Source: an uncultured Actinomycetes bacterium (GTDB lineage Bacteria; Actinomycetota; UBA4738; HRBIN12). Taken from it: DNA of 64,000 bases. The notes below the pieces were generated by a model. That model saw nothing but the letters and a program-made list of their open reading frames with translations, was not told the DNA's origin and did no database searches. Position numbers and translations under genes: made by a program. Shown one piece after another: positions 5,934 through 19,866 of the stretch (position 1 is the first letter of the stretch; every line of letters starts with the position of its first letter). The stretch is taken from positions 2,720,001 through 2,784,000 of the forward strand of contig OY969934.1 in assembly GCA_963704725.1 (NCBI GenBank), read 5' to 3'.

Positions 5934-6797
5934 TCAGGCGTCGTACTCGTAGAAGCCACGGCCGGTCTTGCGGCCGAGCTGGCCCGCGGTGACCATCCGC
6001 TTGAGGAGCGGCGGCGCGGCGAAGCGTGGCTCCTTGAACTCGTCGTACAGGACGTTCGCGATCTGCAGGCACGTGTCGAGCCCGATGAGGTCGGCCAGGC
6101 GGAGCGGCCCCAAGGGGTGGTTCAGGCCGAGGTGGATCGCCGTGTCGACGTCCTCGCGCGTCGCGAACCCGTCCTCCAGCATGCGGACGGCGTCGTTCAG
6201 GTAGGGGATGAGGAGGGTGTTCACGATGAACCCGGCCCGGTCCCGCGACAGCACCGTGGTCTTGCCGAGCGTCACGCAGTAGGCCCGGCCGAACTCCACG
6301 GTCTCGTCCGACGTCGTGATGGCCCTCACGATCTCGACGAGGCCCATCACCGGGACCGGGTTGAAGAAGTGCAGCCCGATCACGAGCTCCGGGCGCGTGG
6401 TCGCCGCGCCGAGGTCGGCGATCGGGATCGACGAGGTGTTCGATGACAGGATCACCTCGGATCGGGTGACCTCGTCGAGCCGGCGGAAGATCTCGAGCTT
6501 CGTGCCGGGATCCTCCGTGGCGGCCTCGATGACCAGGTCGACGTCGGCGAGCGCCTCGACGTCGGTCGTCCCGGTGATCCGGCCCAGGGCCTCGTCGCGA
6601 TCGGGCGACGCCAGCCGATCCCGTTCGACCGCGCGCAGCGTCGAGACCTCGATGCGTGATCGCCCCGACTCGACCAGCTCGTCGCTCGACTCCAGGTAGA
6701 TCACCTGCTGACCCGCTCGGGCGGCGACCTCCACGATGCCGGAGCCCATCAGCCCGCAGCCGACGACCCCGAGCGTGCGGACGTCCTCTCCCTTCAC
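5934..6797 (-). CDS. 3-hydroxybutyryl-CoA / 3-hydroxyacyl-CoA dehydrogenase
   Basis: GVVGCGLMGSGI, SNTSS, GLHFFNP, GFIVN, GRKTGRGFY. Confidence 0.93.
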   Translation of the reverse strand: MKGEDVRTLGVVGCGLMGSGIVEVAARAGQQVIYLESSDELVESGRSRIEVSTLRAVERDRLASPDRDEALGRITGTTDVEALADVDLVIEAATEDPGTKLEIFRRLDEVTRSEVILSSNTSSIPIADLGAATTRPELVIGLHFFNPVPVMGLVEIVRAITTSDETVEFGRAYCVTLGKTTVLSRDRAGFIVNTLLIPYLNDAVRMLEDGFATREDVDTAIHLGLNHPLGPLRLADLIGLDTCLQIANVLYDEFKEPRFAAPPLLKRMVTAGQLGRKTGRGFYEYDA

Positions 6798-6836
6798 GGG
6801 GCCCCCTCGGGTCGAACCGGCGTCAGGGGGCAAGCG

Positions 6837-6842
6837 TACAAT
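6837..6842 (+). promoter_or_regulatory. -10 element (TACAAT) of the putative copper operon
   Basis: Near-consensus -10 hexamer just upstream of in-frame TTG (6853) and GTG (6865) starts. Confidence 0.55.
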
Positions 6843-6864
6843 CACCGGAACCTTGGCCACGCCC

Positions 6865-7449
6865 GTGCCTGCGACGCCGCGCCTTCGAGGCCTCCCGGTG
6901 CTCGGTTTCGCCGTGGCCGGGGTCCTCCTCGGGCACACGCTCACGTATCTCCTGGCGATCCCGGACCCGCTCCACCGCGATCTCGTCCTGCGGACGACCG
7001 GACACGCGTACCTGCCCGCGGCGGGCGAGGCGGCGCTCGTGCTCCTGCTCGCCGGCGTCGCGGCGGTCGTCGTCCGGGCGTGGTCTCGTGGGCGGCGCGA
7101 GGGACGGGACTCGTTCGGGGGCCTGGCCGGGCTGCTGACGGCGGTCCAGGTCTCCGGGTTCCTGGGCCAAGAGGTCCTGGAGCGACTCGTCACGCGGTCG
7201 CCCCTCGGCGAGCTGGTGCACGATCACGTCCTTGCCATCGGTGTCCTGCTCCAGATCCCCCTGGCCCTGGCGGCCGCCGCGATGCTGCGTTGGCTGGCCC
7301 GCGCCTCCGCGGCCGTGGCGGAGACGACCGGCGGTCGCACCGCCACCCCCCGGCCGGCGCTGGTCCTGGCGGCCACCGCCCCGGCCGACGTCCCCCACGG
7401 CCGCGTCGCGGCCACGGCCCGGCGCGACCGGGCTCCTCCCTCCGCCTGA
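6865..7449 (+). CDS. His-containing polytopic membrane protein with C-terminal RAPP motif; candidate translational-arrest leader
   Basis: About 4 hydrophobic segments with GH..TY, H.D…GHAY, QE.LE; ends RRDRAPPSA*; alternative start TTG 6853. Confidence 0.7.
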   Translation: MPATPRLRGLPVLGFAVAGVLLGHTLTYLLAIPDPLHRDLVLRTTGHAYLPAAGEAALVLLLAGVAAVVVRAWSRGRREGRDSFGGLAGLLTAVQVSGFLGQEVLERLVTRSPLGELVHDHVLAIGVLLQIPLALAAAAMLRWLARASAAVAETTGGRTATPRPALVLAATAPADVPHGRVAATARRDRAPPSA

Positions 7450-7505
7450 CGCCTCCCCCAACCTGCGCGCGACGGACGTCGCGCTCGGAGACGCCTCAAG
7501 GAGGA
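7434..7505 (+). promoter_or_regulatory. Predicted SD-sequestering RNA structure
   Basis: TCCTCC 7434-7439 complements GGAGGA 7500-7505; CTCCG 7440-7444 complements CGGAG 7486-7490; inner hairpin GCGCGAC-GGAC-GTCGCGC 7467-7484. Confidence 0.55.
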
Positions 7506-7510
7506 CGAGC

Positions 7511-8197
7511 ATGATCGATCGCATCACCAGACTGATGGCTGCTGCCGCGCTCACGGTGGGGTTCGTGGGCCTGCTGGCCTCACCGGCGACTGCGCACGAG
7601 GAACGCGCGGTCGGCGACTTCGACCTCACCGTGGGGTTCGGCACGGAGCCGGCATACGTGGGCGAGCCGAACAGCGCCATCCTGCTGCTGTCGCGTGGCG
7701 GTCGGCCGGTCGTAGACCTGGGCGACACCCTGAGCGTCGACGTGTCGTTCGGCGACGCGGCCCCGTTCCCCTTGTCCGTCGAGCCCTTCTTCGAGGAGGG
7801 CGAGTTCGGAACGCCCGGCGACTATCGAGCCTGGTTCATCCCGACGAGCGCCGGACAGTACACGTTCCACTTCACGGGGACGATCGACGGCCAGGACGTC
7901 GACGAGACCTTCGTCTCCGGCCCCCAGACGTTCAACGACGTCGAGACCCCGACCGACGCCGAGTACCCCGATCAGCCGCCTTCGACGAGCGAGCTGGCCG
8001 ACCGGATCGACCGCGAGGTGCCGAGGCTCAACGATGCGATCGGCGGAGTGAAGAGCTCGGCCCTGGCCGCGGCGCAGAGCGCCTCCGACGATGCATCGGG
8101 CGCGCGCACCGTCGGCGTGATCGGAGTGGCGGTGGGAGGGCTCGGCTTGATCGCCGCCGCGGCGGCCATCGGCATGTCGCGCAGGGCGAGGGCGTGA
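7511..8197 (+). CDS. Secreted, C-terminally membrane-anchored protein with predicted N-terminal His (putative Cu-binding)
   Basis: AAGGAGG SD; signal peptide PATA|HEER; beta-rich domain (GQYTFHFTG); C-terminal TM plus RRARA. Confidence 0.75.
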
Positions 8198-8222
8198 GCC
8201 TCGTGTGTTCGAAGGGCTGAGG

Positions 8223-8771
8223 ATGCTCGCACACGCGGGAGGCGCGCCCGAGTTCGCCTCGTCGATGCTCGTCGCCGGCGGCGTGGTGGCCGGCTGGGTC
8301 GGCCTCAGCCGCCTGCGGGGTCGGGGCTTCCGGCGGCTGCCGCATGCGGCCGGCGTGACCCTTCTCGCGCTCGCGCCGGTGATCGTGGTGGCGTCCGTGG
8401 TGGTGCCCTCGCTCGTGTGGCCCATCCCGTCCGCGAGCGGACCGCGCCCGGCCTCGACCGCGTCGATCTCGTTCGTCGCGCCGAAGCCGGGGCAGAGCGT
8501 TACGGGCGACCTGCTCGATGTGCGGTTGGAGCTGGACGGCGGCAGGATCGTGGAGAGCTCCTCGACGACGGTCACCCCTGACACCGGGCACGTCCATGTC
8601 TTCCTCGATGGGCAGCTCCTGACGATGACCTACGGCCTCGAGCAGGAGGTGGGCGTGGCGGGGCTGACACCCGGCGTCCACCGGTTACGGGCCGAGTACG
8701 TCGCGGCCGACCACGCACCCTTCAACCCGGACGTGGTGGCGACGGTGACGTTCGTGAAGGCCGCGACGTGA
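8223..8771 (+). CDS. Membrane protein with His-motif Ig-like domain (DUF4399-like)
   Basis: MLAHAGG start, two TMs, [24 protein letters not shown]. Confidence 0.7.
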
Positions 8772-10726
8772 GGCGGGCCGTCGTCGTCTCGGTCGTGGCG
8801 CTCGCCCTGGTGGGCGCCTGGACCGCCTCCGCGGTCCGCGCCGGTGCGCACGCCGCCCTGAAGCGGAGCGAGCCGGCCAACGGCCAGCTGCTCGACCGTT
8901 CGCCCGCGGAGATCCGGCTCTCCTTCACCGAACCGCCCGACCTCTCGCTCACGACGATCGGAGTCGTGGACCGCACCGGAACGGCGGTACGGACCGGGCC
9001 GGTGGAGGTCGCCGGCGGCGACGACCAGACGATCCGGGTTGCGCTGCAAGACCTACCGGACGGCGTCTACACCGTGTCGTGGCGGACCGTCTCGGCGACC
9101 GACGGGCACCTCACCTCGGGGTCCTTCTCGTTCGGGGTGGGCGTCTCCGCGGCCGACGTGACGCCGGTCCGGCAGGAGGATCGAGCGCGAGCGACCTCGC
9201 CCACCGCCGCCGGGGTGGCCGGGCGATGGGCACTGTACGCGGGCCTGGCGGTCCTGTTCGGCGCGGCCGCGGGGGGGCTGTTCGCGTTCGGCCCGCTGAG
9301 CGTGCACCGACCGCGGCTCCTCGGTGGGGCGTGGACGCTCGCCGCGGCCGGCGTGGTCGTCACGACGCTGGACGAGCGCGCCACGGTCGGCGTGTCGCTC
9401 GGCACGCTGCTCCGATCGGATGCGGGGGCGTCGCTCGCCCGGCTCGCGGTCGCCGTGGCCCTCGTCGGCCTCGTCGCCCTGGCGGCGAGCCTGCGACCGG
9501 GGACCGCCACCCTCGTGCTCCTCGCCGGGACCACGGCCGCCGCCATGGCCGTCCGGGCGTTCGCCGGCCATGCCGGGCCGTCCGTGCTGGAAGGCACGCT
9601 TCAGGCGGCGCACTTTGCCGCCGTGGGGGCGTGGATCGGGGGGCTCGTCTGGCTGGTGCTCGCCGTGCGGCGAGGGGCGGAGCCGGAGCGGGTGCGACGG
9701 TACTCGACGATCGCCGCGACCGGCCTCGCCGTCATCGTGGTCACGGGGTACCTGCGAGCCACCAACGAGCTCGGGGGGTTCGGTTGGTGGCTGCGTGCGT
9801 TCGACAACAGCTACGGCGTGGCGCTGGTCGTCAAGCTCGCCATCGTCGCCGCGCTCGTCTCGCTCGGCGCGGTCAACCGGTACCGGAACGTGCGCCGCTA
9901 CGAGGCGCTCGGGGCTCGTCCTCTGCTCCGCACGGTGAGCGGCGAGCTCGTCCTGGCCGCCGGAGCGCTCGCCATGACCGGCCTGTTGACAGGGCTCGCC
10001 CCCCAGGGTGTGGTGGCATCGGCGGGCCCCCGTCCCCCCGCACCGCTCGTCGTCACGGGATCGGACTTCGCCACGACCACGAAGGTGCGCCTGCAGATCT
10101 CGCCCGGAACCGTCGGCCCGAACGCATTCGAGGCGAGGGTCACCGACTACGACACGGGCGAGCCGGTGGACGCCCGAAAGGTCACGCTGCAGTTCTCGCT
10201 CCCAGAGCGCCCCGAGGTCGACTCGACGCTCGAGCTCGAGCGCGGGACGAACGGGACGTGGCGGGCCGGGGGGACGTCGCTGTCGCTCGACGGCACCTGG
10301 GACGTCCGCGTCCTCGTGGAGGGCTCGGCCGGCTCGGTCGAGGTGCCCCTTCGCGTGACGCCGAAGTCCCCGCGGCAGGACATCGACGTGTCGCGGGCCG
10401 AGGGGCAGCCCGACATCTACACGATCCATCTGGAGGACGGCGTGACCGTGCAGGCGTACGTGGACCCCGGGACGCCCGGGCAGACGAACCAGGTGCATCT
10501 GACCGCCTTCGACGCGGGCGGCGCCGAGCTGCCCCTGCACCATGCCGTCCTGGACATCACCCCGGAGGACGGTCAACTCCTCGAGCCCGAGCTGATCCGG
10601 CTCTCGTCGGGACACTTCGTGGCCAACGTCGAGATCGCGTCAGGGACCTCGACGTTCGCGATCTCCATGCTGACCAGGGACGGTCGCGATCTCGCGGCGT
10701 CGTTCCAGGAGACCTTCGCAGGATGA
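8768..10726 (+). CDS. Copper transport protein, CopC-CopD fusion (YcnJ-like) with extra C-terminal beta domains
   Basis: AGA|[10 protein letters not shown]-terminal His, W..VSATDGH..SG (CopC); AGHA, H..AV..W.GGL, YG..L..KL (CopD); two YtkA/FixH-like domains. Confidence 0.88.
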
Positions 10727-11166
10727 AAGGAGCGATCGTGACGCGAACCCACACCGTGGCCCTGTCGATCGTCGCGGCGGTGACCCTGGCGGCCTGCGGG
10801 GGGAACGGGTCCGGCGACGCCGCGTCGCCGAGCTCGGGAACGTCCTCCCGTCCGAGCAGCCCCGCCCGGCTCTCGATCGAGGCGCCGAAGGCCGGCCACG
10901 TCGTGCACGGCTCGACCGTCCAGCTGCGCGTCGATCTGGAGGGCGCCCGCCTCGTCCCCGCCACCACGACCGACATCGTGCCCGACGAGGGGCACCTCCA
11001 CGTCATCCTGGACGACTCCCTGATCTCGATGACCGAGGGCCTGCACCAGTCGATCCCCAACCTCTCGCCGGGGATGCACCGGTTGACGGTCGAGTTCGTG
11101 GCCAGCGACCATGCCCCGTTCGACCCGAGGGTGGTCGCCGTGACCGAGTTCGAGGTGCAGCCGTGA
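10723..11166 (+). CDS. Lipoprotein with His-motif domain, paralog of 8223-8771
   Basis: Lipobox LAAC; GHLHVILDD, HRLTVEFVASDHAPF; start ATG 10723 or GTG 10738. Confidence 0.75.
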   Translation: MKGAIVTRTHTVALSIVAAVTLAACGGNGSGDAASPSSGTSSRPSSPARLSIEAPKAGHVVHGSTVQLRVDLEGARLVPATTTDIVPDEGHLHVILDDSLISMTEGLHQSIPNLSPGMHRLTVEFVASDHAPFDPRVVAVTEFEVQP

Positions 11167-11729
11167 GCGCCCGCGTCGGCGGCACCTCGCCGAACCCCGC
11201 CGTCGCGGCCCCGGCCGTCGTGCTGGCCGGGGCGGCGATCCTGCTCGCCCGGCCGTTCGTCGACGCGGCGCCCGGAGGCCGAACGGCGTTGTTCGCCACG
11301 GCGTACCTGGTGATCGGCGTGGCCGCCGTGTCCCTCCCCGGCCGGACGGCGATCGCCCCGGTCCTTCCGTGGGCGCCGGCCCTCGCGCTCGGCGTCCTCG
11401 CGGTGGCCGTCGTCGGCACGCTCGGCCCCCCCGTCCCGGTTCCGTGGGGACCGGCCGCCCTGCCCCTCGCGGGCCTGGCCGGGGTGGCGGAGGAGGCGCT
11501 GTTCCGGCGCGCGGCGTACGGATGGCTCGAGCGCTTCGGCGCCCCGGTCGCCGTGGTCGGATCGGCGGCCCTGTTCGCCGCCGTCCACATCCCCGCCTAT
11601 GGCCTGACCGTCCTTCCGGTCGACCTCGGGGCGGGGCTGCTGCTCTCGTGGCAGCGGTGGGCGTCGGGGAGCTGGACGGCTCCCGCGGCCACCCACGTCG
11701 TGGCGAACGCCCTGGCGGTGCTTCGATGA
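11163..11729 (+). CDS. CPBP (CAAX/Abi family) intramembrane protease
   Basis: EEALFR, FAAVH, H...N motifs; GTGA overlap. Confidence 0.85.
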   Translation: MSARVGGTSPNPAVAAPAVVLAGAAILLARPFVDAAPGGRTALFATAYLVIGVAAVSLPGRTAIAPVLPWAPALALGVLAVAVVGTLGPPVPVPWGPAALPLAGLAGVAEEALFRRAAYGWLERFGAPVAVVGSAALFAAVHIPAYGLTVLPVDLGAGLLLSWQRWASGSWTAPAATHVVANALAVLR

Positions 11730-12976
11730 GGCGGGCCGCGCAGCTGCTGCTGGCCGTGAGCCTCCTCGCCGGGGCCTCCTGCTCGATCGGGAACGAGGAG
11801 CCGCCGATCCGCATCGGAGCCGTCTATCCGCTGTCGGGGTCGCAGGGCCCGGGAGGCGTCGACGAGTTCCGCGGCGTGCAGCTCGCCGCCCAGCTCGTGA
11901 ACCACGACGGCGGCATGAACGGGCGGTCGGTGCGGCTGGTCCCGATCGACGTGCCGGGGGCCGATGCCGTTCCCGGTGCGATCGCCCGTCTGGATGCCGA
12001 GGGCGTCGACCTCGTCCTGGGGAGCTACGGCAGCACGATCTCGGCTCCCGCGGCACGGGCGGCAGCCCGGCGAGGGATGCTGTTCTGGGAGTCCGGCGCG
12101 GTCGGCGAGATGTCGGGTGAGGGCGCCGGCTCGCTGGTGTTCCGCGTGGCGCCGAACGGCACCGTGCTCGGCCGCAACGCGATCGACTTCGTCGCGGATC
12201 GCTACGCGCCGGTTCTCGGGGTGGATCCCGCGCGCCTCCGATACGCCGTCACCCTCGTGGACGACGCCTACGGCCACGGCGTGGCACAGGGGGCTCTGGA
12301 CGAGATCGCCGCCCGCGGGTTCACGCTCGCGACCACCCTGGCCTACGACCCCAACCACGTGAACATGGCGAGGCTCGTCCGCCGGCTCGCCGCGAGCCAC
12401 CCCGACGTCCTGTTCGTGTCCGGGTACGTCGCGGACTCGGTGGCGATGCGCCGCGAGACCGTGGCCCAGGGTCTTCACCTTCTCGCCGGCATCGGGACGT
12501 CCTCCAGCTACTGCATGCCGAGGTTCGGCGCCCGGCTCGGCGACCAGGCCGTGGGGCTGTTCGCGTCGGACAAGCCGGACGCCGACGTCCTGGACCCCGG
12601 TGCCCTCACCGCGCCGGGGCGGGCGCTGTTCGAGCGGGCGGAGGCGGCCTACGAGGAGCGGTTCGGCGATCACATGAGCGAGGCGGCGCTGGCGGGGTTC
12701 TCCGCCGCGTGGGCCCTGCTCGGCGAGGTCCTGCCCGCGGCCGAGCGGATCACGCCGGCGGCCGTCGCCTCGGCGGCCAACGCGATCCGGCTCCCTCCGG
12801 GCTCGCTGCCCAACGGGAGTGGCCTCGAGTTCGGCGAGCCGGGATCGGCGACGGCGGGGGCCAACCTGCTGGCGCTCGGCGTGATCGAGCAGTGGACCGC
12901 GCCGAACGAACGCGCGGTGGTCTGGCCGGCCGGGTACGCGACCGCCCCGCTCGAGCGGATCGACCCGTTGCCGTGA
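11726..12976 (+). CDS. ABC-type solute-binding lipoprotein, LivK/type I PBP family
   Basis: Lipobox-like AGASC; IRIGAVYPLSG, N..GG.NGR, LGSYGS, DDAYG. Confidence 0.85.
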   Translation: MRRAAQLLLAVSLLAGASCSIGNEEPPIRIGAVYPLSGSQGPGGVDEFRGVQLAAQLVNHDGGMNGRSVRLVPIDVPGADAVPGAIARLDAEGVDLVLGSYGSTISAPAARAAARRGMLFWESGAVGEMSGEGAGSLVFRVAPNGTVLGRNAIDFVADRYAPVLGVDPARLRYAVTLVDDAYGHGVAQGALDEIAARGFTLATTLAYDPNHVNMARLVRRLAASHPDVLFVSGYVADSVAMRRETVAQGLHLLAGIGTSSSYCMPRFGARLGDQAVGLFASDKPDADVLDPGALTAPGRALFERAEAAYEERFGDHMSEAALAGFSAAWALLGEVLPAAERITPAAVASAANAIRLPPGSLPNGSGLEFGEPGSATAGANLLALGVIEQWTAPNERAVVWPAGYATAPLERIDPLP

Positions 12977-13734
12977 GGAGTCGTCGGACCGCAGCCCTCG
13001 CCGCCGGGATCGTCGTGGCCGCCCTCTACGCCGGCTCGGCCGTGTTCTCGGGGCACCTCAGCCCGTCGGCCCGGCGGCCCCTCCTGGACGGCCTCGCGCC
13101 CCCCACCCCGTACCGCTGGGTGGAGCCGCCCCCAGAGCTCGAGAGCACGAACCTCGAGCCGTCCTCGGGGACGTTCCGCGTCGCGCTCGGCGCCGCGGGA
13201 AGCCGCACCGCCGTGTTCACCACCGACGACGCGCAGGTGTCGCTGATCCTGCCGAGGGGCGCGTTCGACGTCGCCCCGGCCCAGGACGCCGTGGAGGTCA
13301 CCGTCGAGCCGGTCGGCCCCTCCACGGTTGGGGCACCGGAGGAGCCCGACCGCATCGCGGGCAACGTCTACCGGCTCGGCGCGACGTACCGGCCGTCCGG
13401 CGATCCCGCGCCGCTCGCGATCGACGCCCGGGTGGTCCTCGTCTATCCCCTCCTCGCCGGCGACCACGGCGGGCACGAGCTCCTCGTCTCGGCCAACGGG
13501 AGGAGGTGGCGGGCCCTCGACACGAACGACCTCCCCAGCGTCCAGCAGGCGGACGCGGCGGTATCCCAGCTCGGCTACGTCGCCGCCGCCTCGACGAACC
13601 GGTCCGCGACCGTCTCGCCCTCAGGCGGCGCGGAGCAGGGGGGTTCGACGGCGGCGACCGTCGTGATCGTCGCCGCGCTCATCGTGCTGGTGGTGGGGGC
13701 CGCCGCTGCGCTGCGACCGTGGCGCCTGCGCTAG
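12973..13734 (+). CDS. Hypothetical exported protein with C-terminal TM anchor
   Basis: GTGA overlap; N-terminal hydrophobic segment, PLLDG…PYRWV.PP, GNVY, C-terminal TM plus RPWRLR. Confidence 0.7.
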   Translation: MRSRRTAALAAGIVVAALYAGSAVFSGHLSPSARRPLLDGLAPPTPYRWVEPPPELESTNLEPSSGTFRVALGAAGSRTAVFTTDDAQVSLILPRGAFDVAPAQDAVEVTVEPVGPSTVGAPEEPDRIAGNVYRLGATYRPSGDPAPLAIDARVVLVYPLLAGDHGGHELLVSANGRRWRALDTNDLPSVQQADAAVSQLGYVAAASTNRSATVSPSGGAEQGGSTAATVVIVAALIVLVVGAAAALRPWRLR

Positions 13735-14891
13735 CAGACCTGCTGGAGCAGCGGCCAGGGGTTCACGGCGGTCCCGATCACCGTGTAGCCGTACGGGCTC
13801 ACCTGCCAGTTGCTCGGGATGACGCTCGGATGCCACTCGAAGTGGTCGTGTGGCGTGCTGGTGTCGCCGGTGGCCCCCACGTAGCCGATCACGGTGCCGG
13901 CGGTGACCGGGCCCGTGATCCCCGGCTGCATCATGTGGGCGTTGTAGACGTAGGACCCGTCGGGCGCCGTCACGTATTCGGCGTAGCCGCCGAGGGTGTT
14001 CGTCGAGGTGTGGGCATACCCGTCGAACGGAGCGAAGATCTTGGTCCCCTGCGGCGCGATGATGTCGTTGCCGGCGTGGGGGTGGTATCCGCCCGCGTAG
14101 CGGGGGGCCCCGAACCCGTCGTAGACCGCGTGCGGCTGGTCCACGGGGCAGATCTGCAGGATGGCGTCCGGGAAGAACCGCAGGTTCGCCAGGGCGGCCA
14201 GCTCCGCCTTGTACTTCTTCGTGAGCTTCTGCACCAGCTCCTCGGCCCGGGCCTTGTCCGCGTTGAGATGGTCGAAGACCCCCTGGGCATCGGAGAGTTT
14301 GGCGTCGAGGGCGGCCTTCTGCGCCTGGACCTCCTGGAGCGCCTTCGCCGCCTTCTCCTGGAGCTTCGCCTCGTCGTCCTGCTTGGCCGAGAGCTCGTTC
14401 TTCAGGTTCTGGACGTCGTTGGCCAGATCGGCGTCCTCCCCGTTCAGCGCGTTCACGTACTCCATGCGGGCGGACAGGTCGGCGAGCGAGGTCGCGCCGA
14501 GGAGGAACTCGATGGAGCTTCCCGGGCCGGTGATGTAGGCCTCGCGGGCTCGGGACTCGAGCTTGTCCTGGAGCCCCTGGTACGTGGCCTGGGCGTCATG
14601 GAGCTGGTTGGTCGTGGTCCGCAGCTCCTCGGTGATCTGCTCCCAGCGACCCTGTGCGATGTCCATGCGGTTGGCGATCACTGCCGCCTGGAGCTGGAGG
14701 CGACCCAGGACGCGCTGCTGCGCAATGATCTCGTGGCGCAGCTGCTCGAACTCGGCCTCGGCCCGGTCGAGCTGCTGCTTCGTCGTCTCGGCGCCGGCGA
14801 CCTGAGCCACCGAGGCCAGCAGGACCAATGCCGCGAGCGCGCCGAGGGTGCGGCGGGCCAAGCTTCGGGCGCTCGATCGGTTTTCGGCCAT
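13731..14891 (-). CDS. Coiled-coil + M23 peptidoglycan endopeptidase
   Basis: Signal peptide, long coiled coil, HAGND (HxxxD) and HDH (HxH) zinc motifs, GYVGATG. Confidence 0.88.
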   Translation of the reverse strand: MAENRSSARSLARRTLGALAALVLLASVAQVAGAETTKQQLDRAEAEFEQLRHEIIAQQRVLGRLQLQAAVIANRMDIAQGRWEQITEELRTTTNQLHDAQATYQGLQDKLESRAREAYITGPGSSIEFLLGATSLADLSARMEYVNALNGEDADLANDVQNLKNELSAKQDDEAKLQEKAAKALQEVQAQKAALDAKLSDAQGVFDHLNADKARAEELVQKLTKKYKAELAALANLRFFPDAILQICPVDQPHAVYDGFGAPRYAGGYHPHAGNDIIAPQGTKIFAPFDGYAHTSTNTLGGYAEYVTAPDGSYVYNAHMMQPGITGPVTAGTVIGYVGATGDTSTPHDHFEWHPSVIPSNWQVSPYGYTVIGTAVNPWPLLQQVC

Positions 14892-14904
14892 GGGAAGGGC
14901 CCCT

Positions 14905-14934
14905 TGCTTACCGGACCCCGGACGGGGGTGTCAA
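14905..14934 (-). promoter_or_regulatory. Putative sigma-A promoter of the M23 peptidase
   Basis: TTGACA (14934-14929), 18-nt spacer, TAAGCA (14910-14905) on the minus strand. Confidence 0.45.
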
Positions 14935-15035
14935 CCACCGGCCGGGACGAGGGTGGCGCCTGGCAACCCCCGATGCAATCACCCTCGGCGGTCTCGTCGC
15001 CGGGCTTGAGGGCCCCCCGGAGTCGGGTCCCGTGC

Positions 15036-16193
15036 CTACAGGTCGGTGCCGGGCAGCCCCAGGGACCGGGCGATGAGCACGCGCTGGATCTCGTTCGTGC
15101 CCTCCCCGATCTCCAGGACCTTGGCGTCCCGGTAGAACCGGGCCACGGGGAACTCCTCCGTGTAGCCGTAGCCACCGTGCACCTGGACCGCGTCGCGGGC
15201 ACACGTCGTGGCGATCTCGCTGGCGTAGAGCTTGGCGATCGAGGCCTCCGTCGCGTACGGCCGGCCCGTGTCCCGGAGCCACGCCGCCCGCTGATAGGCC
15301 AGCCTGGCCAGCTCCACGGCCACCTTCATGTCGGCGATCTTGAACTGCAGCCCCTCGAACGCGCCGATCGGCCGGCCGAAGGCCTCGCGCTCGCCGGCGT
15401 ACCGCACGCTCTCCTCGAGGCATCCCCGGGCCAGCCCAACCGAGAGCGCGGCGATGGCGATCCGTCCGTCGGCCAGCGTCTCCAGGAACTGCGCGAACCC
15501 GCGCCCGCGCTCGCCGAGGAGATGGTCGGCGGGCACCCGGCACCCGTCGAAGGCCACCTCGTGCGTGTCGCTCGCCCGCCAGCCGACCTTGCGATAGGCG
15601 GCGCCCACGGTCATGCCGGGCGTCCCGGCCGGGACCAGCACGGTGGAGACCGGGCCGCCCTCGGTGCCCGGGTCGCGAGCCGCGACGAGCACCACCGACG
15701 TGATCGGCGTCCCCGAGTTGGTGATGAACGCCTTCGAGCCGTCGATCACCCACTCGTCCCCATCCAGACGTGCCGTCGTGCGCACCGCGCCGGCGTCGGA
15801 CCCGCCGCCCGGCTCGGTCAGGGCGAACGCGCCGATCGCCTCGCCCCGCGCCATCGGCTCCAGCCACCGGAGCCGCTGCTCCTGCGTGCCGAACCGGTAG
15901 ACGGGGTTCGCCGCCAGCCCCACGGCGGCCTCGAGCGTGATGGCCACGGACGAGTCCCATCGCGCGATCTCCTCGATGCAGAGGCAGAACGTGAGCAGAT
16001 CCCCGCCCTGGCCTCCGTACTCCTCGGGGAAGGGGATGCCGAAGAACCCGAGCTCCGCCATGCGCTTAACGATCTCGAGGGGGAATTCCTCGCGCTCGTC
16101 GTAACCGGCGGCAGCCGGCGCCACGACCTCCTGGGCGAACTCCCGGACGAGCTGCTGGAAGGCCCGTTGCTCCTCGGTGAGCTCGAAATCCAC
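15036..16193 (-). CDS. Acyl-CoA dehydrogenase
   Basis: FALTEPGGGSDA, GSKAFITNSG, VQVHGGYGY, IGEGTNEIQ. Confidence 0.95.
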   Translation of the reverse strand: MDFELTEEQRAFQQLVREFAQEVVAPAAAGYDEREEFPLEIVKRMAELGFFGIPFPEEYGGQGGDLLTFCLCIEEIARWDSSVAITLEAAVGLAANPVYRFGTQEQRLRWLEPMARGEAIGAFALTEPGGGSDAGAVRTTARLDGDEWVIDGSKAFITNSGTPITSVVLVAARDPGTEGGPVSTVLVPAGTPGMTVGAAYRKVGWRASDTHEVAFDGCRVPADHLLGERGRGFAQFLETLADGRIAIAALSVGLARGCLEESVRYAGEREAFGRPIGAFEGLQFKIADMKVAVELARLAYQRAAWLRDTGRPYATEASIAKLYASEIATTCARDAVQVHGGYGYTEEFPVARFYRDAKVLEIGEGTNEIQRVLIARSLGLPGTDL

Positions 16194-16202
16194 GGGCGCA
16201 GA

Positions 16203-19200
16203 CTAGCCGCTCGCCGGAGCCGGGCCGAGCTCGGCCCCGGCCAGCAGCGCGGGTCGTCGCAGGGCCAGCTCGTAGTGGGTCCGCTCCAGGAGCGACCGCG
16301 CCGCCTCGAGCGCCTCGGCGCCGCCGACCTCCTGCGGTCCGAAGAGGCTGCCGACCAACCACACGACCGCCGCCTCGTCCTTGGGCTGCGCGAGCTCCCC
16401 CGGCTCCCGCAGGAGCCGCCGGGCGCGCTCGAGCGCCTCCTCGCGATCGCCCTCGGCCAGGAACAGCTCCATCTCGGAGTCGAGCAGCCGGCTGCCCGGG
16501 GCGCCGTCGACGCTCGACAGACCCGCCGCCTCCGCCAGGACGCCCCGCGCCCGCCCGGTCTCGCCGGCCGCGACGAGCGCCTTGGCCAGCGAGGTCGCCG
16601 TGAACACCGTGAGGCTGCGCTCCTTGAGCTCCTGGCACAGCCGGTACGCCTCGCGAAGGTCCCGCACCGCCTCGGTCGTTCTGCCGGACACCCGGTGCAG
16701 GTTGCCCCGGCCGGTCAGCGTGCTCGCCAGCTCCCATCGTGCCCCGAGCTGGCGGAACCCCTCGACGGCCGCGTCCGCGTGCGCCAAGGCCTCGTCGAAG
16801 CGGCCCAATCGCCGGAGCGAGCCGCCGACGCTCTCCCTGGCCGTGGCGATCGAGAACCGGTCCCCGGTGCTCTCGGCGATGACCAGGCCCTCGGAGGCGA
16901 GCGCCAGGCTCCGCTCCTCGTCGCCGGTCTCCGTCTCGATCGTGGCCAGGTTGGCCAGGGCGCGGGCCTCCGCCCATCCGTCGCCCTCGGGGTTGGCCCG
17001 CGCCACCTCGAGCGCCTCACGGAACATCGCGCCGGCCCCGTCCATGTCGCCGAACCAGTAGGGACCCCAGCCGGACACGACGAGCGTCCGGGCCAGTGTC
17101 CAGGGGTCCCCCAGCTCCCGGGCCGCCTCGAGCGCCGTCTCGAACAGCTCCGCGCCGCGCTCTCGGTTGCCGTGGACGGAGATCTCGATGTCTCCGAGGA
17201 AACGGGAGGCCTGCGCGCGGATGGCCGGGTCCTGCGGCGCGAGGTCGAGCGCGCGCCCCAGCGCGGCGGCGGCCCGCTCGAACTCCCCCTGCCAGTACCG
17301 GGCCTCGCCCAGGTGCGACAGGATCTCCGCCTCGCGGAACCCCCAGGTCCGCTCGGGTCCGCTCATGACCAGCGCCCGGGCGTAGAGGTCGGCGCCCGCC
17401 CGCGTGTCGGACGCGTCGAGCGCGAGATGCCCGGCGTGGGCGAGGGCCTGCACGGCGCGCTCGGCGAGCTCGCGATCGCCGGGGTTGAGGTCGAGGGAAG
17501 CGCGGGCCGCGCGCTCGAGGTGGTAGGCGATCGAGCGCGGGTACCGCGCCGCCGTCTCGGGGTCGGCCGAGAGCCCGTCGGCGATCCTCAGATGCAGCCG
17601 CTGCCGCTCGCGCTTGGGGAGGCTCTCGTAAGCCACGTCGCGCACGAGCCCGTGGCGGAACCGCCACACGCCGGGGCGCTCGGTGTCGCGCACCAGCAGC
17701 TCCTCGCTCTCGAGCAGCTCGAGCACCTTCTCGTCCGGCTCGGCGACGAGCGCGAGCTCCGACAGATCGAACGTGGAGCGCGCGAACACCGACGCCGTGC
17801 GGGCCAGATCCCGGGCGGGCTGGGCCAGGTGGTCGATCCGCGAGGCGATCACCGCCTGGACGGTGGGCGGCAGCAGTCCCTCGGGGAGCGAGTCCGTGTC
17901 CGAGGGCAGGTGGTGCTCCGCGTGCCGGAGCATGCCGGTGGTCTCCACGATGAAGAACGGGTTGCCGCCGGCGTGGCGGGCCACCCGCTCCGCCGTGGCC
18001 ACGTCGATGTGCTCGCCGGCCTCCTGCGCCAGCTGGGTGGCGTCGTCGAACGACATCGGCTCCAGGTACAGGTTCAGCGAGTCGCCGAGCCCGCCGCCCC
18101 ACTCCGGACGCTCGTCCAGCAGGTCGTAGCGGGCGATGCACAGGACCAGCAAGGGGATCCGCTTGGCCTCGCGCACCACCTGCTCGATGAGGTCGAGCAT
18201 CGAGGGCTGCGCCTGGTGCGCGTCCTCGAACACGAGGACGACGGGCGAGGCGGCGGCGAGCCCGGACAGCAGCGCGAGCAGGCCGGCCCGGATCTCGGCG
18301 ACCGGGTAGCGGTGCTCCTGCCCCCGCGTCTCCTCCTCGCCGATCCCGAGCGCCAGCGCGAGCCGGGCGACCACCGGATGGATCTCGTCGGCGGGACAGC
18401 AGCTCGCGGCGAGCTCCTCCAGGCGAGCCAACAGACGCGCCGGGCTCGAGTCCGCCCGCTCCCCCAGCTCCTGCAGCAGCATCTGCGCGAGCGGCGCGAA
18501 CGTGACGTCCTCCTCGTAGGGGCTGGCCGTGCCGAGCAGCACCTTGACCTCGTCGGGCAGCCCGGCGACGAACTCCTCGGCCACCCGGCTCTTGCCGATC
18601 CCGGGCTCGCCGAACAACGAGACCAGGTGCCCGCGGCGCGTCTCGACGACCCCCTCGAACGTGTCGTGGATCAGACGGAGCTCGCGCTTGCGATCGACGA
18701 TGGGGATGGTCCGGCGGGTGCTACCGGGGGCGAGGGCCACCACCGGCCATCCTCGGGCGCCGTCGTCGAACCCCTTGGCCGAGATCTCGCGCGCCGGCGC
18801 GTACTCGACCTGTGTCCGGGTGAGCAGCCAGGTCTGCTCGGACACCTGTACCGTCCCGGGGTCCGCCGCCTGCTGCAGCCGCGCCGCGAAGTTGACCGTG
18901 GCGCCGAACAACAGGCCCTGCTCCGAGGACTCGGTGCCGATCGCGACCGGCCCGGTGTTGATCCCGACGCGCGCCCGAAGCGGGACGGGGAGGCCGTGGC
19001 TCTGGCCGATCCGCCCGATCCGCTCGATGAGGGCGAGGCCCGCCCGGACCGCGCGGAGCGCGTCGTCGTCGTGCACCTTGGGGATGCCGAACACGCCGAC
19101 CACGGCGTCCCCGGCGAAGTTGTAGGCGCGGCCCCGGAGCGACTCCAGCTCCTCGGAGACCGTCCGGTAGTACGACGCGATGACCTCGCGGAACCGCTCG

Positions 19201-19370
19201 GGGTCGATCTGCGCGGACAGCTTCGTCGAGCCCACGAGGTCGACGAAGATCACCGTCACGACCTTGCGCTCCTCGGGCGGCGGCGCGTCGACGGGATAGC
19301 CGCAGTTCGGGCAGAACCGCGCGGCCTCCGGCAGGGGCTCGCCGCATCGCTGGCAGAGGGTGACGGGCAT
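16203..19370 (-). CDS. Zn-ribbon / class III nucleotidyl cyclase / STAND-type ATPase / TPR protein
   Basis: CQRC…CPNCG; FVDLVGST, GDAV, VNFAARL; Walker A GEPGIGKS, Walker B LVFED; GGNPFF; helical repeats. Confidence 0.9.
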   Translation of the reverse strand: MPVTLCQRCGEPLPEAARFCPNCGYPVDAPPPEERKVVTVIFVDLVGSTKLSAQIDPERFREVIASYYRTVSEELESLRGRAYNFAGDAVVGVFGIPKVHDDDALRAVRAGLALIERIGRIGQSHGLPVPLRARVGINTGPVAIGTESSEQGLLFGATVNFAARLQQAADPGTVQVSEQTWLLTRTQVEYAPAREISAKGFDDGARGWPVVALAPGSTRRTIPIVDRKRELRLIHDTFEGVVETRRGHLVSLFGEPGIGKSRVAEEFVAGLPDEVKVLLGTASPYEEDVTFAPLAQMLLQELGERADSSPARLLARLEELAASCCPADEIHPVVARLALALGIGEEETRGQEHRYPVAEIRAGLLALLSGLAAASPVVLVFEDAHQAQPSMLDLIEQVVREAKRIPLLVLCIARYDLLDERPEWGGGLGDSLNLYLEPMSFDDATQLAQEAGEHIDVATAERVARHAGGNPFFIVETTGMLRHAEHHLPSDTDSLPEGLLPPTVQAVIASRIDHLAQPARDLARTASVFARSTFDLSELALVAEPDEKVLELLESEELLVRDTERPGVWRFRHGLVRDVAYESLPKRERQRLHLRIADGLSADPETAARYPRSIAYHLERAARASLDLNPGDRELAERAVQALAHAGHLALDASDTRAGADLYARALVMSGPERTWGFREAEILSHLGEARYWQGEFERAAAALGRALDLAPQDPAIRAQASRFLGDIEISVHGNRERGAELFETALEAARELGDPWTLARTLVVSGWGPYWFGDMDGAGAMFREALEVARANPEGDGWAEARALANLATIETETGDEERSLALASEGLVIAESTGDRFSIATARESVGGSLRRLGRFDEALAHADAAVEGFRQLGARWELASTLTGRGNLHRVSGRTTEAVRDLREAYRLCQELKERSLTVFTATSLAKALVAAGETGRARGVLAEAAGLSSVDGAPGSRLLDSEMELFLAEGDREEALERARRLLREPGELAQPKDEAAVVWLVGSLFGPQEVGGAEALEAARSLLERTHYELALRRPALLAGAELGPAPASG

Positions 19371-19401
19371 GCGCCAAGGATACGCAGGGCCTGCGACCCA
19401 C

Positions 19402-19866
19402 CTACTCGACGGGGCGGAACCCCGCGATGTCGAGGATCGAGCCCGTGCGCTCGGGTGCCAGGACGACCTCGACCCGCTCGCCGATCTCGAGAGGCTCCTC
19501 GCCCCCGTCGAGCACGCGGTGGAGCAGGACGGCGTCGGCTCCGTCCAGGCGCACGAGGCCGATCGTCGCGGGCTCCTCGAGCGCCTCGCCTTCGAGGTCC
19601 GCGAACGCGATCGTGAACGAGACCAGCACTCCGCCGGGACCGACCTCGGTGTCGGCGGCGAGCTCCGCGAAGCACCGTTCGCAGAACAGCCGAGCGGGGA
19701 CGTACGTGTAGGAGCACGCCTCGCACCTCGAGCCGAGCAGCACGCCCCGGTCGCGGAGCGCGGTGAGGAAGACCTCGCCGGCGACGCCCGGCGTGTACCG
19801 ATGACGGACCGGGAGATCGCCCTCCCACCGCCGGACCTCGTCGGGCCGCGCGATGCGCTCGAGCAT
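19402..19866 (-). CDS. Zn-ribbon OB-fold (DUF35) protein
   Basis: CEAC…P.R.FCERC followed by OB-fold. Confidence 0.85.
   Translation of the reverse strand: MLERIARPDEVRRWEGDLPVRHRYTPGVAGEVFLTALRDRGVLLGSRCEACSYTYVPARLFCERCFAELAADTEVGPGGVLVSFTIAFADLEGEALEEPATIGLVRLDGADAVLLHRVLDGGEEPLEIGERVEVVLAPERTGSILDIAGFRPVE

Follow-up and report, generated by a model that had tools for sequence, protein, structure and literature searches.

How bacteria import copper is still little understood, and gene control through stalling of the nascent chain is a recent addition to the literature. The tetrapeptides RAPP and RGPP are avoided in proteomes and concentrated at the C-terminal ends of small proteins that are secreted or reside in the membrane (PMC12992588, EMBO J, December 2025). 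Proteins carrying them are enriched upstream of sec genes, TonB receptors, and YcnI-family, PCuAC and PepSY genes; the YcnI-family entry of that study counts 280 RAPP against 91 AAPP, and the proteins preceding YcnI are mostly transmembrane (TM) (PMC12992588). All seven Streptomyces lividans examples stalled in vitro and in a Bacillus subtilis reporter in an Arg-dependent manner, and one of the seven, SLIV_18480, has four TM segments and precedes a metal-related gene (PMC12992588). The subject here is an eight-gene cluster (g1-g8) at positions 6865-13734 of a 64,000-nucleotide (nt) stretch, hereafter the window, from the genome of an uncultured Actinomycetes bacterium (GCA_963704725.1, contig OY969934.1), whose first gene ends in RAPP and whose fourth resembles a known copper importer.

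Two systems link stalling leaders to copper. CruR of Bordetella pertussis (Bp2923, DUF2946) carries a CXXC motif about 45 residues before its RAPP, and copper relieves the stall, after which Rho terminates before the uptake genes (PMC9426467). In CutF of Rhodobacter capsulatus, a copper-induced stall melts a stem-loop over the next ribosome-binding site (bioRxiv 10.1101/2025.02.05.636593). Independently of stalling, Bacillus subtilis depends, when starved of copper, on the CopC-CopD-YtkA importer YcnJ, which exchanges Cu(II) with the anchored protein YcnI, whose mature form starts with His (His-1) (PMC13344008, PMC12362106).

The eight genes are best read as a copper-handling operon, most likely for high-affinity acquisition and controlled by its own first gene through stalling, a reading given a probability of roughly 0.6. 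Because the g1 protein carries a known ribosome-stalling motif at its end, stalled translation, rather than a repressor, probably acts as the switch of the operon. The genes, all on the plus strand of a 3.45 Mb genome in one contig, are as follows.

6865-7449, plus strand: g1, GTG start, with an in-frame TTG at 6853 as an alternative; C-terminus ...RRDRAPPSA before the stop codon
7511-8197, plus strand: g2, ATG start with its own Shine-Dalgarno (SD) sequence AAGGAGG
8205-8771, plus strand: g3, probable true start at ATG 8223, from relatives
8768-10726, plus strand: g4, CopC-CopD-YtkA/FixH by Pfam
10723-11166, plus strand: g5, lipoprotein, DUF6130 over the Pfam cut-off
11163-11729, plus strand: g6, Rce1-like CPBP protein by Pfam
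11726-12976, plus strand: g7, Peripla_BP_6 protein by Pfam
12973-13734, plus strand: g8, unnamed family with TM segments at both ends

The original prediction had described co-oriented genes of which the last six are joined by 4-nt overlaps, and this layout was recovered, with five overlaps of the GTGA/ATGA type linking g3 through g8. Its gene-by-gene description also proved correct, apart from the size of g1 and the probable start of g3. The "unusual composition" that it ascribed to the operon can only mean gene content, as the guanine-cytosine (GC) fraction of 0.70-0.76 in the region matches the flanks. No match to g1, g2 or g8 was found in Pfam, and an NCBIfam scan of g1-g8 returned merely sub-threshold CopC/CopD, CPBP and LivK-like matches.

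The cluster is real and conserved. Fifteen loci around CopCD relatives (same genus, family and order) were searched with the window proteins, and the full g1-g8 order was kept in 12 of them; one locus (L018) lacked separate g3 and g6 matches, one (L021) had g1, g2 and g4 only, and one (L025) held only a CopC fragment at a contig end. Among 20 more loci sampled around g1-family matches elsewhere in the phylum, four from four different families (L059, L061, L075, L076) had g1-g2-g4-g5-g6-g7-g8, without g3, and zero matches to the flanking genes of the window. The eight-gene order in 12 of 15 loci, together with the seven-gene set in four distant loci that lack the window flanks, indicates that the cluster travels as a unit, an arrangement beyond chance, and the prediction that the downstream genes are conserved with copCD thus held. 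The 80 listed g2 relatives in the named genome collection were all from metagenome-assembled genomes (MAGs) of uncultured Actinomycetota or Thermoleophilia. The source genome (G023) of locus L018/L030 is unpublished, and counts that include this locus depend partly on it. One MAG (G009) had two complete eight-gene copies plus flanking genes on two contigs (L013, L024); with 9% contamination listed, these may be two strains rather than a duplication.

The original prediction had called g1 a RAPP leader. R[AG]PP was indeed found across the family at a fixed position, although g1 turned out to be a predicted four-helix membrane protein of 194 residues (aa) with the tail RAPPSA, not a short peptide. 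The AlphaFold 2 (AF2) model, computed from a 139-sequence alignment, had a mean predicted local distance difference test (pLDDT) of 88.2 and a predicted template-modelling score (pTM) of 0.77, with four long, hydrophobic helices (10-31, 50-74, 84-109 and 122-156) and a disordered tail (157-194). A Foldseek search of this model against solved folds gave nothing at E<=0.001, only generic helical bundles. No Pfam family, hence no DUF2946, was matched at E<=0.01, and the protein contains no Cys. Residues H24, Y28, G46, H47, E103, E106, R107, G126, R189, P191 and P192 were invariant in the alignment. The Arg-rich N-terminus and 75-83 loop, and a C-terminus still held on the ribosome, argue for an N-in/C-in topology, which would place H24, H47, E103 and E106 in the outer half of the bundle.

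Among the 14 close relatives, 13 ended in R-A/G-P-P, 2-7 codons before the stop. In the fourteenth (L015:3945-4600, genome G005), the homologue match ends at residue 153 without RAPP, and P0002 shares those C-terminal residues; this homologue is probably broken by a frameshift or an assembly error. A profile built from 13 sequences matched 2505 representative clusters among 1.84 billion at E<=0.001, and 1570 at E<=1e-10. The last 20 residues contained R[AG]PP in 135 of the best 150 representatives (89 RGPP, 46 RAPP) and RSPP in 10 more, and the remaining five, with neither, look truncated or shifted. Within these best 150, the motif sat 1-10 residues before the stop, most often 2, and was absent outside the tails (0 in 26,839 residues). 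In every one of the 139 sequences, G126 and the motif Arg were 60-66 residues apart, with 62-64 in 120 cases; the tail is poorly conserved in sequence but nearly fixed in length. This leaves some 42-44 residues between the motif and the end of helix 4, about the length of the exit tunnel and a little more. By its C-terminal motif, TM segments and co-oriented downstream gene, g1 fits the RAPP/RGPP arrest-peptide class, and it is here considered a putative copper-sensing arrest peptide.

What members of this family precede points to copper. The g1 profile matched 78 of 301 sampled genomes of the phylum, a tally based partly on unpublished genomes, with one match in the genome of the window and none in any sampled genome above about 6.6 Mb. 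A g2 homologue directly followed g1 in 26 of 29 loci; conversely, 51 of the 70 named g2 loci with enough upstream DNA had g1 directly before g2, with RAPP or RGPP in 49 of the 51. The downstream genes of 15 g1-family loci were annotated by Pfam, and seven loci had matches: YcnI/DUF1775 (L063, L069), CopCD, YcnI and a DUF4399-like protein (L064, L066), PCuAC and SCO1 (L073), a PepSY_TM protein (L074), and CopC and DUF305-CopD proteins (L077, where the leader tail reads GRPPP). Every Pfam-nameable downstream gene set of the family, these seven loci and the g2-CopCD type alike, is copper-related. In three other loci (L065, L067, L071), the genes after the g1-family member encoded a lipoprotein of 147-204 aa and a membrane protein of 435-474 aa starting ...ILAHGIGGR.DLP.P, both without a Pfam match; they may form another uncharacterised copper-related pair. 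In addition, three g2 relatives with no g1-profile match upstream (L147, L152, L155) were preceded by open reading frames (ORFs) of 55-109 aa, counted from stop to stop, with the sequence ...IVRSPPS..., which may represent a divergent leader of the RSPP type.

The stall codons themselves may be part of the switch. Between the end of g1 and the start of g2, 61 nt after the g1 stop, the following elements were located.

7429-7440, plus strand: codons CGG GCT CCT CCC of R189-A-P-P192, with two more codons up to the stop; stall site and 5' SD-masking arm, both proposed
7452-7456, plus strand: second CCTCC directly past the end of g1; alternative anti-SD, shared by only some of the relatives
7467-7484, plus strand: GC-rich hairpin GCGCGAC-GGAC-GTCGCGC in the g1-g2 spacer
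7498-7504, plus strand: AAGGAGG, SD of g2, seven bases before the ATG

Minimum free energy (MFE) folding, applied to the window and to 13 relatives, paired the g2 SD with C/U-rich sequence in or just past the RxPP codons, enclosing the hairpin; in the window the partner was the region 7438-7443. A GC hairpin occupied the spacer position in all 14 folded relatives, with a different sequence in each, and that of the window was neither followed by a T-run nor called as a terminator by the scan. Over 55 loci, the SD core was paired with the segment from RxPP to the stop in 39, typically with the two Pro codons, and with sequence within 25 nt past the stop in eight; the partner lay elsewhere in three, the SD was unpaired in four and no SD was found in one. 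CCU-CC is the exact complement of GGAGG, and CCT encoded the first Pro of the motif in 23 of 51 loci, compared to 81 of 893 (9%) other Pro codons of the same ORFs; it is also rare in g1-g8 of the window (6 of 156 Pro codons). The median probability of an unpaired SD (n=54) was 0.082 in the native sequence, 0.216 after synonymous recoding to CCG-CCG, and 0.404 with masking of the 23 nt that a ribosome stalled on Pro-Pro would cover. The native value for the window was 0.002. The terms "Shine-Dalgarno", "stem-loop" and "secondary structure" are absent from the main text of PMC12992588, so the use of stall codons, enriched in the rare CCU, as the predicted anti-SD of the next gene may be new.

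The protein encoded by g4 is the only CopD match of the genome. It matched CopC (residues 28-124, 81 bits) and CopD (308-407, 49.4 bits), and YtkA (29 bits) and FixH (34.2 bits) over 435-524, all above the Pfam cut-offs, with zero matches in the last 123 residues (530-652). Judged by these matches, g4 has the YcnJ-type three-domain architecture. Its CopC domain contains a ...TDGH... motif and a His at the predicted mature N-terminus (cleavage and ligands judged by eye), which are candidate ligands of a histidine-brace Cu(II) site. Compared with ycnKJI, g4 shares the layout of YcnJ and g2 that of YcnI (signal peptide, N-terminal His, beta-sandwich and C-terminal anchor), whereas the cluster lacks YcnK or CsoR, g2 is not DUF1775, g4 has one extra C-terminal domain, and five further genes are present. 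As originally predicted, no CsoR/YcnK-type regulator was matched among g1-g8 or the two flanking genes, and the sole CsoR-family match of the genome lay about 1.0 Mb away.

Surface proteins surround this putative importer. In g2, residues A26, A28, H29, E46, Y49, N54, Y117 and H120 were invariant, and the AxA cleavage site makes H29 residue 1 of the predicted mature protein. Its AF2 model (pLDDT 70, about 85 in the domain) comprised a beta-sandwich (30-135), a long helix and a C-terminal TM anchor. The best fold matches by VIA-align were CrdA (Z 11.7), DUF4426 (10.1), FtrA-P19 (9.7), HftA (9.6) and Tp34 (9.0), with a carbohydrate-binding module among them and no YcnI structure among the 50 matches listed. 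CrdA, FtrA-P19, HftA and Tp34 are copper or iron-copper periplasmic proteins, yet the fold is common, and these matches are only suggestive. By sequence, the g2 profile matched no solved structure below E=1; DUF1775 was matched by none of 14 g2 homologues at E<=1 and nowhere in the genome of the window. When g2 was aligned to four actinobacterial YcnI proteins with hhalign, only the stalk and anchor aligned (columns 148-215, probability 76%): g2 (8100-8197) and these YcnI stalks share P..GELA and an acidic DD(A/D)(S/G) just before the TM anchor. From this, g2 appears to combine a His-1 head of another kind with a stalk of YcnI type, and to occupy the place of YcnI.

Two further proteins carry related His-rich domains. 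The lipoprotein g5 matched DUF6130 (25.3 bits, above the cut-off of 23.7) and fell just under the cut-off for DUF4399 (27.4 bits against 28), while g3, a two-TM protein with an extracytoplasmic His-rich DUF4399/DUF6130-like domain, scored 20.8 and 19.5 bits for these two families, both below the cut-offs. The pattern GHxHxxxD...M...GxH...E.V..DH.PF.P was conserved between them, and the two domains are, judged by this alignment, paralogous. Both also aligned with the DUF4399-positive proteins of L064 and L066, which there follow CopCD-YcnI. No solved structure was matched by g5 by sequence, and the literature on DUF4399/DUF6130 and copper yielded one unrelated mention. Relatives of g3 start with M(M)LAHAGG, so the true start in the window is probably ATG 8223, and the resulting N-terminus, MLAHAGG, would lie outside the membrane with a His at position 4.

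Only synteny ties g6, g7 and g8 to copper. The g6 protein is a putative CPBP (Rce1-like) intramembrane protease (PF02517, 49.3 bits, cut-off 22.4), and g7 encodes a LivK-type solute-binding lipoprotein (PF13458 Peripla_BP_6, 107.4 bits, cut-off 31.7) with no permease or ATPase gene in the cluster, hence an orphan. In g8, N- and C-terminal TM segments enclose an extracytoplasmic domain with few conserved His in the alignment, and its matches in the Atlas were to unnamed actinobacterial clusters only. A role of g6 as a sorting protease for a C-terminal signal of g2 and g8 was dropped, as g2 has a DDAS-type motif before its anchor and g8 has no conserved motif there.

Among described leaders, g1 most resembles those of the SLIV_18480 type, with which it shares four predicted TM segments, conserved His, a C-terminal RAPP/RGPP and a co-oriented copper-related gene next to it (PMC12992588). 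The classes of operon headed by the g1 family (YcnI, PCuAC, PepSY) are also those of that study. The two leaders differ in size, the SLIV_18480 mutant R273A implying at least 277 aa compared to 194 aa for g1, and, as they are described, in polar residues, with three His, one Met and a Cys pair in SLIV_18480 against two invariant His, two invariant Glu and zero Cys in g1. Moreover, the gene after g1 is not annotated as YcnI, unlike in the YcnI-type cases of PMC12992588, and the sequence motifs of g1 were not found in the examined part of the lists of that study. As in CruR, RAPP stands close to the stop, a conserved distance (about 45 residues in CruR) separates it from the sensing element, in g1 a putative one, and the leader heads an operon for copper acquisition, in g1 a probable one, without a regulator protein (PMC9426467); in contrast, CruR is described as exported and soluble, senses through CXXC and depends on Rho, while g1 is a four-helix membrane protein without Cys or DUF2946 and with predicted SD masking. 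CutF resembles the proposed system in a C-terminal Pro-rich stall that melts mRNA structure and in an extracytoplasmic copper signal, but there Cu induces the stall and switches on a detoxifying oxidase, and CutF is a DUF2946 protein and not polytopic. SecM, MifM and ApdA/ApdP share with g1 a C-terminal RAGP/RAPP-type motif, an N-terminal membrane or secretion signal and a release thought to be force-dependent; they control Sec or YidC genes and sense that machinery, whereas the genes downstream of the g1 family are copper-related.

Under the copper-acquisition reading, a YcnJ-type CopC-CopD-YtkA importer (g4) would stand at the centre, with g2, g3 and g5 as its surface-anchored, His-rich partners. 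The g1 protein would insert as a four-helix bundle while its own tail is still being synthesised, and by analogy with known arrest peptides the ribosome would stall at R189-A-P-P192, its P and A sites occupied by the two Pro codons. The same Pro codons, and in some relatives also the post-stop CCUCC, would mask the g2 SD; a stalled ribosome would free it, so that g2 is translated and the overlap-coupled genes behind it follow. Copper, the proposed ligand and signal of g1, would bring folding to completion during the packing of helix 4, some 43 residues away from the stall site, and folding would pull on the nascent chain, end the stall and turn the operon off when copper is sufficient. This direction of regulation, the assignment to acquisition and not detoxification, the binding and relay of copper by the surface proteins, and the roles of g2, g3 and g5-g8 are likewise proposed parts of the scheme, and to that extent the interpretation in the original prediction is supported only in part.

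A fuller version can be put forward only tentatively, as it is doubtful in its entirety. In it, g1 would be a polytopic membrane sensor of metal acting co-translationally, in which Cu at the two His and two Glu of the outer face releases the RAPP stall and CCU-CCC serves as anti-SD. The operon would be the copper-uptake apparatus of uncultured soil Actinomycetota, with a new His-1 head replacing that of YcnI and with the DUF4399/DUF6130 proteins, the CPBP protease, the orphan LivK-type protein and g8 all engaged in copper handling. If this is true, ribosome occupancy of one six-nucleotide element would be both the sensor output and the switch.

Several observations weigh against the acquisition reading or parts of it. 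Of the 70 g2 loci, 19 had no g1 directly upstream, and in some of these a CopCD-like ORF precedes g2. By sequence, g2 was not recognisable as a YcnI, and its fold matches point to a common beta-sandwich. The clustering of H24, H47, E103 and E106 is read from helix positions and the positive-inside rule, and His/Glu ligands are not specific for copper. In the window, the SD stayed paired when the footprint was masked (probability unpaired 0.019), because of the second CCTCC at 7452-7456. Pairing of the SD at single loci was within the range of shuffled sequences, 1-67 of 100 dinucleotide shuffles of the upstream part being as paired in the 13 relatives, and the MFE z-score averaged -1.13, with values below -2 in 11 of 55 loci. 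Pro-Pro codons are inherently complementary to an SD, and loci that are related do not count as independent. The downstream mechanism may also differ, as CruR acts by Rho-dependent termination, not by SD masking.

The opposite logic, a copper-resistance or detoxification operon in which copper induces or prolongs the stall, as in CutF, and the genes are on at high copper, is unlikely. It would suit the original naming of CopC and CopD as resistance proteins and the best fold match of g2, the Helicobacter pylori copper resistance determinant CrdA (Z 11.7), and CutF demonstrates a Cu-induced stall that melts a stem-loop over a ribosome-binding site (bioRxiv 10.1101/2025.02.05.636593); the computed results are compatible with either sign of the response. 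However, the cluster contains no multicopper oxidase, P-type ATPase or efflux gene, the layout of g4 is that of YcnJ, on which copper-starved cells depend for import (PMC13344008), the operons behind sister leaders include those of PCuAC-SCO1 and YcnI, which serve cuproenzyme supply, and the closest RAPP precedent, the CruR operon, is on at low copper (PMC9426467). Very little probability is given to g1 being a substrate that monitors Sec/YidC insertion like MifM or ApdA, with copper genes merely downstream. A TM helix ending about 43 residues before the stall site is the layout of a force-sensitive arrest, and the known RAPP peptides ApdA and ApdP precede secDF-type genes (PMC12992588), but no Sec or YidC component was found among the downstream genes, all Pfam-annotated cases (7 of 15 loci and the g2-CopCD type) being copper-related, and a pure insertion reporter would not need invariant His and Glu near the outer face.

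For g6-g8, a separate envelope or nutrient function that is only co-transcribed with the copper genes is rather improbable. For none of these genes is a link to copper known, g8 is poor in conserved His, Peripla_BP_6 proteins bind amino acids and amides according to the Pfam description, and there are clusters of just g1, g2 and g4 (L021, L062); yet the same order follows g5 in 12 of 15 close and four distant loci while the flanks change, and 4-nt overlaps join these genes in the window. A conserved role for the C-terminal R[AG]PP in docking or stability, g1 being a structural subunit of the membrane and the motif having no part in translation, is hardly credible. Although g1 is long, well folded and may have a function of its own, RAPP/RGPP is avoided in bacterial proteomes and every tested natural example in PMC12992588 stalled, the motif always lies within 10 residues of the stop after a disordered tail that is conserved in length and variable in sequence, and the rare CCT is enriched at the first Pro codon.

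Upstream of g1, one element was noted.

6837-6842, plus strand: TACAAT, -10-like element 5' of g1, a lead only

In 10 of 14 relatives, TACAAT occurred no more than 100 nt 5' of the g1 homologue, whatever the reading frame, mostly embedded in (A/C)GCGTACAATC (relatives L013-L027; window 6834-6843). In L020 and L022 it stood 7 nt before an ATG, a leaderless-type layout, and in the window the in-frame TTG at 6853 is 10 nt 3' of it. A sigma-70 consensus scan of 6500-14200 gave 0 promoters, and an intrinsic terminator scan of the same interval gave one terminator-like site, inside g4 and at chance level. On the minus strand, a putative 3-hydroxyacyl-CoA-dehydrogenase-like gene precedes g1 and a putative M23-like gene follows g8 (by eye and by synteny). 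The latter (13731-14891, minus strand) is a convergent secreted-protein gene with a coiled-coil-like N-terminal part and an M23-peptidase-like C-terminal part (by eye); it overlaps the g8 stop by 4 nt, and its synteny extends across the genus and to some other families. A 2036-aa open frame at 13506-19616 (plus strand), with an Arg/Gly/Pro-rich translation, is most likely spurious, lying opposite real minus-strand genes in high-GC DNA.

The control principle, a RAPP/RGPP leader before copper genes, is already published (PMC12992588, PMC9426467), and the present finding is an extension of it. What distinguishes this locus is a large membrane-sensor leader family with fixed geometry, a predicted stall-codon anti-SD switch, and uncharacterised surface proteins. 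With its confident fold, invariant polar residues and fixed distance to the stall site, the g1 family makes the source of the force that releases arrest testable where the downstream genes are not Sec or YidC. Pro-Pro codons acting as anti-SD would, if true, be a very compact switch. The operon also gives a copper context to families for which none was found in the literature searched, namely the g2 head, DUF4399/DUF6130, g8, the orphan Peripla_BP_6 protein and the CPBP protease.

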